Below, piece after piece: positions 6,060-56,451 of a stretch of 64,000 bases of DNA (the first letter of the stretch is position 1; every line of letters begins with the position of its first letter). This stretch comes from Octopus vulgaris (lineage: Eukaryota), in NCBI GenBank assembly GCA_951406725.2, contig OX597821.1, positions 93,372,001-93,436,000 on the forward strand, given 5' to 3'. A program made the position numbers and the translations under genes. The notes under the pieces were generated by a model that saw only the letters and a list, made by a program, of their open reading frames with translations, did no database searches and was not told the origin of the DNA.

Positions 6060-7250
6060 TAATAATTTTATTTATCAAAAAATGCTATGAGGAAAAAAAT
6101 AAACCTTCTTTTCTTTAATGTTATTTAATAAAACCGCCTTCAGCTTCAACAACTGCTTCTATATAAGATCTAAATCATCTACATGCTTGAATGAAGTGGT
6201 CTTGGCTCATTTCGGACACCACTCTGAGTATGGTAGCTTTCAAAGAATCTTTGGAATTATAGGCGTGTTCATTGACCTCTCTCTCAACAAGGCTCCACAT
6301 GTAATAGTCCAATGGATTGAGATCTGGGGAATTAGGAGGCCAAATGTTAGGGGTTATGTGATCATGAAATTTTTCAGTCATCCATTCCTGTGTTACTAGA
6401 GCCATGTGTAATAGTGCAGAGTCGTACTGAACACATATGGCCTTCCATTGCATACACTGTCTATCCAGGGCTTAACAATTATTTCCAAGACCTCAATGTA
6501 GGCAGTAGAGTTAACTCGAAGGCCTTGTGGAAAGAAATAATGAGGCTTCACATGTCCTTCATTGCTGACAACTCCTAAAACCATGACAGTTGCATGGAAA
6601 TTTTTTATGCATAACACTTCAGTAGGGTCTGCACATAACCATCTGTCATTTCTTCTATTAAATTTTTGATCTTGGTTGAAGTTTTTCTCGTTTGAGAAAA
6701 AACAAATCAAATCTTCTACTGGAGTTTTCAGTTTATTTAAGAGCCTTTTAGATTTGATGTAGTGATTTTCTTTTGCTCATTCTGACAAATTGACCTTTCC
6801 TCATCATATAAAACTTATATCTGATGTCTTCATGGACAACATTTCTGACTGTTCTTTCTGATACATAGAGATCTTTAGCAATTGACCTCATAGACTTTCT
6901 AGGATTGTAATCAATGGTCTGTTGAACTTTGTGGATAAATTCAGGTTTTCTGATGATTTCAGAGTGTTTAGAATGCGTTTTATGTTTTGATACTGGTGAT
7001 ACATTTCCATCTTTAGTCTTTAGCTCCTTACAAACTTTGTAGATGAAAGATCTGGCAACTTTTAAAAATCGAAATATTTCTAAATCCCTTTGCTCAGCCT
7101 TTATAACCAAAATAACAGCATGCCTCTTCATTTCTTGAGTAAGCTAAGGGTCTGCCATTATTAGTTTCTGAAACAAAGATTATACAGAATTCGCAAAATA
7201 TGCAGCAATGACTCAAAAAAGGTATGTCCTCAAATACCTTACGTACCCTG
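6060..7250 (-). mobile_element. Decayed Tc1/mariner DD37D (maT-like) transposon
   Basis: Frameshifted ORFs: HTH-like N-terminus (6748-7131), FSNEKNF (6396-6710) and YDSA-x-WPPNSPDLNPLD with 37 residues between the last two Asp (6175-6453); terminus ...ACCCTG-TA at 7250; other end uncertain. Confidence 0.85.
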
Positions 7251-17843: not shown

Positions 17844-18131
17844 ACTGTAGATGCTCTTTGTGAAGTTTATTCTTTTGTAAGTGTTTGGTTAATGTTTCTG
17901 GTTTGAGGATAAGTTTCTCTGTTCTTTCCAACAGTCATGATGGAAAGAAGGATATGGGGAGCTTTTTCCATGGAATCATTAGAAAACAGCTATGGATACT
18001 GACTAAGTCATTAAAAATGCAACAATAACAATATATATCTATCTATATATATATGTAGGTCCCGGGTTGAGTCGGGGTTAACCACAGTAAATAAGGTACT
18101 CAATACATAGCAGAGTAAATTTTATAGAAGG

Positions 18132-18182
18132 AGCTTCTACAGGACTAGAACTGTTTCATTCAAAAGAAATCATCAGGAAGCT
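18132..18182 (-). ncRNA. Type I hammerhead ribozyme motif
   Basis: Exact reverse complement of the motif at 18472-18522. Confidence 0.8.
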
Positions 18183-18471
18183 AGGTGACAAGAATAGTTT
18201 TGGCATTTATACATTTAGGCAGGTTTAAAGGGGTGGTGGTGGGGGACTTTTTGGGGTAGGCATGGCGCAAACTATCATTCTTAGGGGAGTGGTCAAAGGA
18301 ATTAGTGATAAAGTAGATAAAAGAATATTCTTTTATCTACTTTATCACTGACTCCTTTGACCACTCCCCCTAAGAATGATAGTTTGCGCCATGCCTACCC
18401 CAAAAAGTCCCCCACCACCACCCCTTTAAACCTGCCTAAATGTATAAATGCCAAAACTATTCTTATCACCT

Positions 18472-18522
18472 AGCTTCCTGATGATTTCTTTTGAATGAAA
18501 CAGTTCTAGTCCTGTAGAAGCT
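18472..18522 (+). ncRNA. Type I hammerhead ribozyme motif
   Basis: AGCTTC-CTGATGA-T-TTC(TTTT)GAA-T-GAAA-CAG(TTCTAGTC)CTG-TA-GAAGCT: 6-bp stem I, intact core, short stem II, 4-bp stem III, GUA triplet. Confidence 0.82.
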
Positions 18523-18533
18523 CCTTCTATAAA

Positions 18534-18572
<39 letters not shown>

Positions 18573-18605
18573 TAGATAGATATATATATATTGTTATTGT
18601 TGCAT

Positions 18606-19530
18606 ATCATCATCATCATCATTTAGCGTCCGTTTTCCATGCTAGCATGGGTTGGACAGTTCAGCTGGGGTCTGTGAAGCTGGAAGGCTTCATCAGGCCC
18701 AGTCAGATCTGGCAGTGTTTATACAGCTGGATGCCCTTCCTAACGCCAACCACTCCATGCGTGTAGTGGGTGCTTTTTACGTGCCACCCGCACAGGTGCC
18801 AGACAGAGCTGGCAAACGGCCACGAACGGATGGTGCTTTTACGTGTCACCGGCACGGGGGCCAGGCGAGGCTGGCAACGGACACGAACGGATGGTGCTTT
18901 TACGTGCCTCCAACACGGGGGCCAGACAGAGCGGGCAAACGGCCACGAAACAGATGGTGCTTTTACGTGTCACCGGCACGGGGGCCAGGCGAGGCTGGCA
19001 ACGGACACGAACGGATGGTGCTTTTACGTGCCTCCAACACGGGGGCCAGACAGAGCTGGCAAACGGCCACGAAACGGATGGTGCTTTTACGTGTCACCGG
19101 CACGGGGGCCAGGCGAGGCTGGTAACGGACACGAACGGATGGTGCTTTTACGTGCCACTGACACGGGAGCCAGACAGAGCTGGCAAACGGCCACGAACGG
19201 ATGGTGCTTTTATGTGTCACCTGCATGGGGGCCAGGCGAGGCTGGCAACGGACACGAACAGATGGTGCTTTTACATGCCACCAACACGGAGGCTAGACGG
19301 GGCGGCGCCGGCAACGAGCATGATCGGATGGTTCACTTAACCACAGCTGCAATTCCCACTGATGTTGATCGACCTCAATTTGGTTCTGCTTTCTGATATA
19401 TGAATTGATTTGGTTTGATTTTGATTCTCACTGGTCTTGCCGGGTTTTCTCACGCACAGCATACTTCCAAAGGTTTCGGTCTCTGGTCATTTCCTTGGTG
19501 AGACCTAAAGTTCGAAGGTCGTGCTTCACT
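18606..19530 (-). mobile_element. 5'-truncated RTE-like LINE (ORF C-terminus, 3' UTR with expanded tandem array, GAT tail)
   Basis: Minus-strand VKHDLRTLGLTKEMTRDRNLWKYAV resembles the RTE ORF C-terminal DL..LG....DR..W motif; about 9 internal units of 61-63 bp; (CAT)n at the left end. Confidence 0.85.
18770..19335. repeat. CpG-rich minisatellite with alternating 61/63-bp units
   Basis: GATGGTGCTTTTA recurs at 18829, 18890, 18953, 19014, 19077, 19138, 19200 and 19261. Confidence 0.92.
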
Positions 19531-19891: not shown

Positions 19892-20327
19892 ATATATATA
19901 TACAGGCAACTTTGTGCTTCAGGTTCAAATCTGATTCAAGTCAACTTTATGCTTTATGTCATGAATACCACAGTGCATTTAGTAAGGAGTTTACAGTTGG
20001 TCGAAAATCTTAGTATAAATTTGTTTTTTTTTAAACTGTTGATGGATCTAACTTAAAAAGAGATAATGCAAGTAGAATTTTAATTTTGAAGAAAACATTA
20101 CCAAAATAGGCAATATGCAATTAAAAAGTCTGCAATCTGCTTCATTTAATTAACTGGTACTTATGTTATCAATTCCAAATGAATGAATGTCACATTTCAC
20201 ATCAGAGAAATATGAACTCAGAACATAAAGAGTTATTACATGATATAATGAGTCATTTAATTGTTTTAATGATACAAAATAATTAAATGAATATGTATAC
20301 ACAGATGTGTATACATATTCATTTAGG

Positions 20328-37151: not shown

Positions 37152-37815
37152 TGAGTGTCTGTGTGTGTGTGATCATGAACATTATCATTTAACATCTACC
37201 TTCCATACTGGCATGGGCTGAATGGTTTGACGGGGGCAGACAAGCCAGAGGACCATGCCAAGCTCAACTGTCTGCTTAAGCATGCTTCCTATAGCTTGAT
37301 GCCCTTCCTAATGCCAACCATTTTACAGAGTGTACTGGGTGCTTTTTTATGTCGCTCCATCAGTAATGAGGTCGCTAATTATCATGCAAAGCAAGGCCCC
37401 TCATCTCAATGGGGAGAAGTACTGAGGGAGATGACTTTATTCCAGGTGATGGGAGGTTAGAGTATGGAAGAGGACAGAAACAACTGTTTTGCTGTAAAGC
37501 AGTTGCATAGCTACAACTCTACTTTCCATGCTTGCAAGGGTCAAACAAGAACATGGAGGGCTAAAGTCATTTATGGTAAATACTCTTACCTGTTTCTAAG
37601 CAAGGTAATAACCCATCTGTCTATCAAACAACAAACAATCCAGACATTGTAAGTGGAGAACTGGAAACAAGAAACAGTTTATGAATGTGTTTTTGTTAAC
37701 AAAAGATCAGGAAACAAATCTAAACACACCATGAAGTCTGGAACAGCTGTCACAATTGACAGCAAGTAAACTACACGGCTTGTATGAACAATATTGAATA
37801 CTATAATGTATACGT

Positions 37816-38112
37816 AGAGGCGCAATGGCCCAGTGGTTAGGGCAGCGGACTCGCAGTCGTAGGATCGCGGTTTCGATTCCCAGACCGGGCGTTGTGAGTG
37901 TTTATTGAGCGAAAACACCCAAAAGCTCCACAAGGCTCCGGCAGGGGGTGGTGATCCCTGCTGTATTCTTTCACCACTCTTTCTCCCTCTCGTTCTTCTG
38001 TTGGCCTGCTCGCTTAGCCAGCTGTGTGGCATCATTCGAAGGCTAAAACAATGCAAACGCATTGTGACCAGCGATGTGCAACTACATCTGATGGACTGGT
38101 CGGTCACGTGAT
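37816..38112 (+). mobile_element. SINE family D
   Basis: Closely similar to 19586-19891. Confidence 0.88.
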
Positions 38113-54847: not shown

Positions 54848-55147
54848 GACAAGATGTGCTTCATTAAAATAATGTCTGTTCCACAGTTTTTCTTCCCAAT
54901 ATGTGTATGCAAAGGCAGAAAATCCTATGAGAGGTTGATGGTGGATGAATGATCCATAAACATTCTTGTATCTTCCATCTTTCAATCTCTCATTAATCAA
55001 ATACCCAACAAACACTGTGAAAGTGAACATGGTTTACCAGTAAGCTACCAGATTTATACTATATGATTTATTATTTAATAATATATATATATAATTGAAA
55101 TAATTTGGTGTCAACAAGAAAGAGCATAGTTGAACATTCATTTTTTA

Positions 55148-55253
55148 ATCACTACAATTGTTTCCATTCAACATAGTTCACCAGGCATGGAGGTACTTGA
55201 TTATACAACTGTTTCCCAGCATTATGAGATCTAGTTGTGATTCCTCAGGTGAT
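55148..55253 (-). ncRNA. Type I hammerhead motif with very long stem II
   Basis: Minus strand ATCAC-CTGAGGA-(~77 nt)-GAAA-CAATTG-TA-GTGAT; perfect 5-bp stem I; GUA triplet; base of stem II decayed. Confidence 0.68.
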
Positions 55254-55362
55254 AATAGTCCTTCAGCAACAATGCACCATGATAAACTCAGTGACTACTA
55301 CTAAATTCCGGCCATAACAGACAGAAAGGATATTCTTGAACTTACGGAGACAATAATTACAT

Positions 55363-55468
55363 ATCACCTGAGGAAACACAACTAGTTCTCATAATACAGG
55401 GAAACAGTTACATAATCAAGTACCTGCACACTTGGAGAACTATGTTGCATCGAAAAAATTGTAGTGAT
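55363..55468 (+). ncRNA. Type I hammerhead motif with very long stem II (stem III C to A)
   Basis: ATCAC-CTGAGGA-(~77 nt)-GAAA-aAATTG-TA-GTGAT. Confidence 0.6.
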
Positions 55469-55800
55469 TAAAAAATAAATATTAAAATCATACCCCTACT
55501 TGTTGACTTCAAATTTTTTCAATTATTTATTCACACAACATGCCAAAACACAACCCTGGAAGTACATATAATACTACTAGTGTCTAGCACAGGGTGGAAT
55601 CTGAAGGTGGGCGAGATTTATGCTGTACTCTACTACAGTCGTAACAGAATATATCATAACTATATATATATATATATATATAAGTATTTTTTTTTTTTAA
55701 ATAGGATAAAATCTTTATAAGAAATTATCAAGTAGTTAGCGTGAAAAACCTCGTAAGAAAAAAATCTGTAAATTTTTTCAACTTTGAAAATACTTATTCA

Positions 55801-56145
55801 TATTATATAGAGGGTACTATTATTCATAGGTACCGCCCGCTAGGAGGGACTTTTGCAGTCAAAACTACTAAAATAAACAAATTGTACCGAATGCAAACTT
55901 CAAAGCGAGTCATTTAAAAACAGAATTTAGTTACATATCACCTGTGATTTCGCAATCAATGCAGAATATGCATTCTATGCTCTTCAGTGCAACGAACTCA
56001 AGACAAGTAAGAAAAAACACATCACATACCCGACAACCAACCATAGAATTTTGCATTCGGTACAATTTGTTTATTTTAGTAGTTTCGACTTAAATGTCCC
56101 TCCTAGCGTGCGGTACCTATGAATAATAGTACCCTCTATATAATA
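55801..56145. mobile_element. Fold-back element with ~100-bp arms and a hammerhead in the spacer
   Basis: TATATAGAGGGTACTATTATTCATAGGTACCGC..TTGTACCGAATGCAAA vs TTTGCATTCGGTACAA..GCGGTACCTATGAATAATAGTACCCTCTATATA. Confidence 0.85.
55930..55993 (-). ncRNA. Type I hammerhead ribozyme motif with intact core
   Basis: Minus strand GTTGCA-CTGAAGA-GCA(..)TGC-GAAA-TCAC(AG)GTGA-TA-TGTAAC: 6-bp stem I, G-C closed stem II, 5-bp stem III, AUA triplet. Confidence 0.85.
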
Positions 56146-56451
56146 TATATATCATCATCGTTTAGTGTCCGATATATATATATATATAATCAAAATAAGC
56201 AACGAGGATATCGAGATATCCTCTGGATATCCTTGTTGTGGTGGTAGTGGTGATGATGGTGATGATGTTGATGGTGGTGATGGTGATGGTGATGGTGATG
56301 ATGATGATGATGATGAGGATGATGACCAGTTATGCATTGGGTCGATATAATCGACTTAATCCATTTGTCTGTCCTTGTTTGTCCCCTCTGTGTGTAGCCT
56401 CTTGTGGGTAGTAAAGCAATAGACATGTTATACTATATTATATCATATATT

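Follow-up and report, generated by a model that had tools for sequence, protein, structure and literature searches.

Anatomy of the palindromic locus

The window analysed here, a stretch of 64,000 nucleotides from the Octopus vulgaris genome, contains a 417-base palindrome made of two arms, one at 18119-18326, read on the minus strand, and the other at 18327-18535, on the plus strand. The alignment of the arms covers 209 columns with three substitutions (18303/18350, 18301/18352 and 18189/18465) and one 1-nt indel (18366), a divergence of 1.4% with a 95% range of 0.3-4.2%. The arms meet between T18326 and A18327 with no loop or spacer, and the near-identical, spacerless arms described in an initial annotation of this DNA are thereby confirmed. 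With regard to the extent given there, 18118..18535, the palindrome itself stands, but the unit is larger, as it includes a left tail (18055-18118) and a flank that is mirrored as far as 18017 and 18605. The features are as follows.

18017..18054, no strand: left host flank, mirrored at 18565-18605, with 15 non-repetitive bases and then a (TA)n/(TATC)n microsatellite
18055..18118, minus strand: one-sided 3' extension ("tail") of 64 nt, family sequence according to the family contigs
18119..18326, minus strand: left arm, read as the element's 3' end (pseudo-LTR-like), 5'-truncated at 18326/18327, from the arm and family alignment
18132..18182, minus strand: type I hammerhead motif, C3 at 18176, predicted cut 3' of A18138
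18205..18211, minus strand: TATA-like heptamer read from the sequence and mirrored at 18443-18449; it lies 22 nt upstream of stem I
18326..18327, no strand: inversion centre, a self-complementary TA common to both arms; family contigs go on into an A-rich stretch
18327..18539, plus strand: right arm, read as an inverted 5'-truncated copy without tail, from the arm and family alignment
18472..18522, plus strand: type I hammerhead motif, dimer-type, with a CUAG palindrome in loop III and a cut predicted 3' of A18516
18540..18605, no strand: right flank, a (TA)n/(AGAT)n microsatellite and then the mirror of 18017-18038

The left arm runs on for the 64 nt of the tail, to which the right arm has no counterpart, and (TA)n borders the element at both ends. 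At the junction of tail and arm, this copy does not have the 8-9 nt present in other family copies. Conversely, the last four bases of the right arm (18536-18539), of which only two can be distinguished from the microsatellite, match the start of a family segment that is missing from the left arm. The left arm has no notable reading frame. Around the TATA-like heptamer, the interval 18200-18231 carries zero listed family variants, and the heptamer might conceivably act as a promoter element, judging from its letters.

Several other repeats are found in the window. A GC-rich tandem array at 18769-19298, with a 61-62-nt monomer, a 124-nt higher-order period, 4.3 copies and 93% matches, is part of a dispersed repeat beginning at about 18606. 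A 42-bp AT-rich palindrome at 20284-20325 lies directly before a dispersed repeat, and short palindromes thus occur without an element. Furthermore, the region 55800-56146 holds a MITE-like inverted repeat that adjoins (TA)n, with 102-bp arms that are 94% identical and a 144-bp spacer, and the window as a whole is rich in short dispersed repeats that form inverted pairs no more than 700 bp apart.

Hammerhead motifs and the folding of transcripts

The two hammerhead motifs are identical and point outwards, one on each strand. In the plus-strand motif, a 6-bp stem I (18472-18477 with 18517-18522) encloses the core CUGAUGA (18478-18484), a 3-bp stem II that is flanked by U.U and capped by a 4-nt loop, the GAAA at 18497-18500, and a stem III of ACAG/CUGU with an 8-nt loop, next to the site GUA. 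The conserved core, the three stems and the NUH site of a type I hammerhead are all present, and the intact, identical motifs claimed earlier, with full core, three stems and GUA site, were found on both strands. The predicted cut in the plus-strand motif falls at the position that had been proposed for it, 3' of A18516, and the distance from the predicted cut to the tail end is 83 nt. The Rfam hammerhead model scan suggested by the initial annotation had another outcome, with 0 matches in the window at the gathering score and no hammerhead among the 31 matches at E<=10, so that the putative assignment is based on the core and stems, without an Rfam family match. Matches to Rfam plant and animal miRNA models, all below the gathering score, were set aside, as they reflect the inverted repeat.

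A descriptor built from the core, stem I and stem III had three matches in the window, namely the mirror pair and a looser one at 55987 on the minus strand, and the same descriptor had two matches in 100 random windows of equal dinucleotide make-up. Two hammerhead-like strings at 55248 and 55368 failed this descriptor and were rejected. They sit in an old inverted repeat (55087-55530) with an identity of 73%; CUGAGGA and GAAACAG occur in its arms, with no hammerhead stems by the descriptor.

The hammerhead fold of the monomer has a computed energy of -7.3 kcal/mol, against -7.6 kcal/mol for the MFE structure, and a probability of 0.04; compared with shuffled sequences, monomers folded no better in any of four folds (z from -1.1 to 0.1). 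When two copies were co-folded without constraints, stems I and III formed between the molecules (-25.2 kcal/mol), and the complete dimer hammerhead reached -24.6 kcal/mol, against twice -7.3 kcal/mol for the monomers. A natural variant of loop III strengthens the dimer further, to -27.0 kcal/mol. The folding models predict that the hammerhead would work only as a dimer, in RNA that contains tandem copies.

With regard to sequence variation in the family, 4 of the 18 listed variants fall inside the 51-nt motif, all of them at free positions (N7, loop II twice and loop III). None of the 36 core and stem positions carries a listed variant, compared with 4 of the 15 free positions (Fisher p 0.005), while the constraint relative to the rest of the element is weaker (0/36 versus 18/227, two-sided p 0.15). 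No compensatory stem pair was seen in the family contigs, in which the stems carry no listed variant, either compensatory or disruptive. Additionally, one contig in each of three runs, in the region 18119-18161, skips 37-39 bases over stem III and the cut site, which suggests a deleted sub-family without a working hammerhead.

The full hairpin has a computed fold of -378 kcal/mol with 204 pairs. In plus-strand transcripts that start at or before 18119, the probability that the bases of the hammerhead are paired with the other arm is 0.999, and that of stems I and III is 0.000; across 13 start points, the probability of stem I reached its maximum, 0.18, in the shortest transcript. The earlier proposal that a transcript could fold into a hairpin of about 200 bp that sequesters the ribozyme is in agreement with these folds. 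Since the hammerhead would be buried in a hairpin of about 204 bp, read-through RNA is predicted to be double-stranded and to contain no working ribozyme, and since the motifs lie on opposite strands, they could not dimerise in cis. Long double-stranded RNA from read-through is a plausible substrate of ADAR or Dicer. Many other inverted repeat pairs in the window would be equally plausible substrates.

No host exon was recognised in the 64-kb window by a scan that short exons would escape. The Pfam scan covered 300 of the 429 stop-to-stop frames of at least 55 aa, leaving out 103 low-complexity frames and the 26 shortest, and none of the 300 scanned frames was above a curated Pfam cut-off or had a domain of a Penelope-like element (PLE). 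The best coherent match was a broken Tc1/mariner-type transposase remnant at 6178-7143 on the minus strand (DDE_3, E 1.7e-6; HTH_Tnp_Tc3_2, E 0.003; both below the cut-off). A weak DM-domain match at 37710-37901 was inspected and dropped.

The family in public sequence runs

The stretch comprising arm and tail is present in 20 of the 24 listed public runs, which come from 9 studies and bear 4 organism labels. No RNA run is among these listed holders, and run X11, guessed to be RNA, was counted as family sequence only. Family contigs from four runs were placed on 17860-18330, a reference stretch that includes the tail and only one of the arms, with 1968, 873, 1952 and 177 contigs, respectively. 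Their cover extends from about 18052 to the end of this reference stretch, and 17956-18051 is uncovered in all four runs; the high-copy family includes the tail. The family features described here, such as dispersal and variable truncation, are read from contigs and loose ends, not from assembled loci.

Loose ends to the left of 18119 were found in 43, 25, 32 and 4 contigs of the four runs, leading into (TA)n in two of the runs and into the tail in the other two. As these loose ends are of two kinds, family copies end either with or without the tail. Among the 32 pieces listed, three bridge tail and arm with at least 31 letters on each side, and each of them has 8-9 extra letters at this point. 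On the other side of the arm, three contigs of run X11 pass 18327 into A-rich sequence, and two of the pieces listed (24 and 32), from other runs, have 23 unmatched letters beyond 18327. Since both contigs and pieces run past 18327, the inversion centre belongs to this copy. With the last base that matches the family included, the two arms overlap by TA, a self-complementary word.

Another spacerless inversion, centred on a different self-complementary word (AGCT), is seen at a loose end at 18182 in 11 contigs of run X1, the first 13 letters of which are the exact mirror for an AGCT-centred fold-back, with a consensus agreement of only 0.6. Moreover, the summed contig depth drops by a factor of 15-155 between the hammerhead and the centre, which, depth being no copy number, weakly hints at 5' truncation or sub-family divergence. 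No contig of the four runs placed on the one-arm reference spans the junctions of the 18119-18535 locus. Lastly, a 15-letter family motif, searched on either strand, had no match in the Naiad, Chlamys and Hydra supplementary files of PMC8557442 or in the supplement of PMC13282606, in which line breaks could hide one, and the family is to that extent unmatched to a published consensus.

Resemblance to Penelope-like elements and origin of the locus

The locus shares with the insertion units of endonuclease-bearing (EN+) PLEs, as described in PMC8557442, PMC3846280 and PMC2377424, the head-to-head inverted 3' ends with an overlapping palindromic junction, the one-sided tail, the hammerhead near the 3' end and the microsatellite target. 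It differs from these descriptions in that no ORF is left, the tail has 64 nt instead of 30-40 bp and the flank is mirrored, whereas a direct duplication is described for the units. In PMC8557442, an inverted 5'-truncated copy is reported to adjoin the 5' end of such elements, with a tail of 30-40 bp often at one end only and with (TA)n targeting. Overlapping inverted pLTRs with junction palindromes, for which self-priming was proposed, are described in PMC3846280, and in PMC11167929 the tail is shown to be bounded by two start sites of reverse transcription, both target strands are extended, and the hammerhead of an anole element is reported as protein-assisted and dispensable for insertion in vitro.

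Within the PLEs, a matching layout was seen by eye among the Hydra-clade hammerheads listed in PMC8557442 (Files S1 and S2), of which 14 of 26 rows have the core followed by U, a stem II of 3-4 bp, a 4-nt loop and U before GAA, and 4 of 26 have the same ACAG/CUGU-A stem III. Penelope-13_HM, described in the same work, resembles the locus in having one hammerhead per strand together with a truncated copy in inverted orientation; the other named comparators of this clade are Penelope-9_HM, Hydra-1_Amil and Hydra-1_Obim. Hydra-clade PLEs also target (TA)n (PMC8557442), although (TA)n and a canonical hammerhead are shared traits and not diagnostic. Notwithstanding, loop III has 8 nt with an inner palindrome at the locus and 1-3 nt in the Hydra-clade rows, and the listed octopus family, Hydra-1_Obim, differs from the locus in motif and sequence (PMC8557442). 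Because the list in PMC8557442 contains Hydra and Chlamys motifs only, the match to the Hydra layout does not fix the clade; the protein motifs given for the Hydra clade are RWK, DKT and CxCX5C, with no CCHH.

The minimal metazoan PLE hammerheads of PMC4209133 and PMC6765202 have in common with the locus the type I architecture, a palindromic helix III region and a predicted dimer. Metazoan PLE hammerheads are reported to be dimer-type with low activity in vitro (PMC4209133; dimers also in PMC6765202), and dual motifs on opposite strands, 100-700 bp apart, are described in Schistosoma mansoni (PMC4209133). The motifs at the locus depart from those of PMC4209133 in that U.U replaces the G10.1-C11.1 pair, which is called highly conserved there, and in that helix II is short in comparison with 7-8 bp. 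Furthermore, helix III could here also close in a monomer, with 3 bp beyond A15.1-U16.1, unlike in the minimal PLE hammerheads as presented in that work. Another comparison is offered by the animal non-LTR retrozymes (bioRxiv 10.64898/2026.07.22.740005), which are likewise non-coding, PLE-related and equipped with a type I hammerhead; in these, units follow one another head to tail in tandem and the motifs are confined to one strand, whereas the locus has one inverted pair.

Taken together, we consider it probable, at roughly 0.84, that the locus arose when an endonuclease-bearing Penelope-like retroelement inserted once, with heavy 5' truncation, and that two short 3'-end cDNAs were thereby joined head to head inside (TA)n. 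A Penelope-like origin, as initially proposed, is supported by the inverted truncated copy that adjoins head to head, by the tail, present at the left end only and with both end types among the family contigs, by the (TA)n ends and by the hammerhead near the 3' end; a dispersed family with variable 5' truncation is present as well. Both ends lie in (TA)n and the flank is mirrored, with no target-site duplication readable in the microsatellite. Three pattern scans of metagenome and viral contigs gave 0 matches, and no parental frame for an RT or a GIY-YIG endonuclease was found through them or among the 300 frames of the window. The locus would be an insertion product of a known kind and one more copy of a described anatomy.

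The enzymatic steps can be sketched from published work on PLEs (PMC8557442, PMC3846280, PMC11167929). The GIY-YIG endonuclease encoded by the element would nick (TA)n DNA, and reverse transcription would begin at two nearby sites of the RNA, leaving one end with the tail and the other without it. Synthesis would halt after about 210 nt, and the ends would join through the self-complementary TA at 18326-18327, either by annealing of the two cDNAs or by self-priming. The product would be a non-coding stump, immobile by itself, and the hammerhead would be cargo inherited from the 3' end of the parent. The youth that the initial annotation had ascribed to it is plausible with arms 1.4% apart, within the width of the 95% range; by the calibration of PMC13282606 and with gene conversion ignored, this divergence would correspond to about 2 My (0.4-6). 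Octopus PLEs are described as abundant and recently active, with 31 recently active families and 6.83% of the genome (PMC13282606).

The non-autonomous element of the initial annotation, if taken to mean a fixed palindromic unit, is not supported. Such a hairpin element, retrozyme-like or dependent on PLEs, would have the whole palindrome as its copied unit, and this appears improbable: the high copy number and the lack of a coding frame in view would suit it, and animal retrozymes have been proposed as non-autonomous derivatives of PLEs (bioRxiv 10.64898/2026.07.22.740005), yet contigs pass the centre and fold back elsewhere, the ends are asymmetric and the depth is lowest at the centre. In a retrozyme, a minimum of two direct units would follow each other in tandem, each with a hammerhead and all on one strand; the locus has no tandem unit and one motif per strand. 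In a milder and possible form of the same reading, the family itself would be linear, non-coding and dependent on PLEs, and its copy at this locus would have been truncated and inverted. As the family passes the centre, folds back elsewhere and has an optional tail, the palindrome has the appearance of a product made once, at insertion. The asymmetry and variability of the ends and centres speak equally against a MITE or foldback DNA transposon inserted at TA, for which symmetric, fixed termini in the form of long terminal inverted repeats and a direct target duplication would be expected; the inverted arms, the TA-rich target and the Tc1/mariner remnants of the window are points in its favour, but palindromes are not the rule in the family, and near the end sits an intact hammerhead whose layout is that of PLEs, leaving this reading with a very slim chance.

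Scarcely more credible is an artefact of assembly or library fold-back that mirrored one arm. The 98% identity of the arms, the missing spacer, the mirroring of the flank as well and the absence of a spanning contig are what such an event would leave behind, but a mirror would have copied the tail, of which the right side is devoid; moreover, the arms differ at four places, the mirrored microsatellites are unequal in length, the right arm retains bases that fit family sequence and are absent from the left, and similar fold-backs are seen in independent runs. Of all the readings considered, a retained regulatory switch between cleavage and double-strand formation in a host intron, which the initial annotation had envisaged, seems the most remote. 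Both motifs are intact, and a transcript that starts beyond about 18185 would leave the plus-strand motif free of antisense. Nonetheless, a young copy would be expected to have its motifs intact, with about 0.7 changes expected per 51 nt at 1.4%, and the hairpin outweighs the ribozyme fold by -378 to -7 kcal/mol and leaves no ribozyme fold when both arms are transcribed (stem probability 0.000, and at most 0.18 in the shortest transcript). In addition, each strand has only one of the two motifs, and the frames scanned in the window gave no recognisable host exon.

The simple insertion model leaves the mirrored host flank unexplained. Beyond the microsatellites, 18017-18038 and 18584-18605 form an exact inverted match of 22 bases, for which the mean expected by chance is 0.01; the 22-base word has only two matches in the window when up to 3 mismatches are allowed, and among the 58 other (TA)6+ tracts of the window, 0 are flanked by a non-simple inverted match of at least 12 bases. 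The insertion itself may have mirrored the flank, if synthesis ran past the end of the element into host DNA, a suggestion that we put forward as possible but rather doubtful. The mirror could stem from fold-back synthesis in which the tail was skipped or lost, or else from cDNAs that were primed on two copies of one and the same strand and then joined. The alternative to such copying of host DNA is that a dimeric endonuclease chose a pre-existing palindrome centred on (TA)n. A narrow search of the literature found no account of Penelope elements that duplicate target DNA in inverted orientation.

If the insertion made the mirror, short pieces of host DNA would be duplicated in inverted orientation by Penelope-like insertions, and loci with mirrored flanks would discriminate between twin priming and self-priming of inverted pLTRs. 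With regard to the palindrome itself, spacerless palindromes with a hammerhead on each strand are to be expected as a recurrent product wherever PLEs are active, and no regulatory story is needed for them. Self-complementary centres of 2-4 nt, together with the mirrored flank, would be fossils of the step that builds inverted pLTRs, and a young family with a high copy number would allow this step to be tested by counting.
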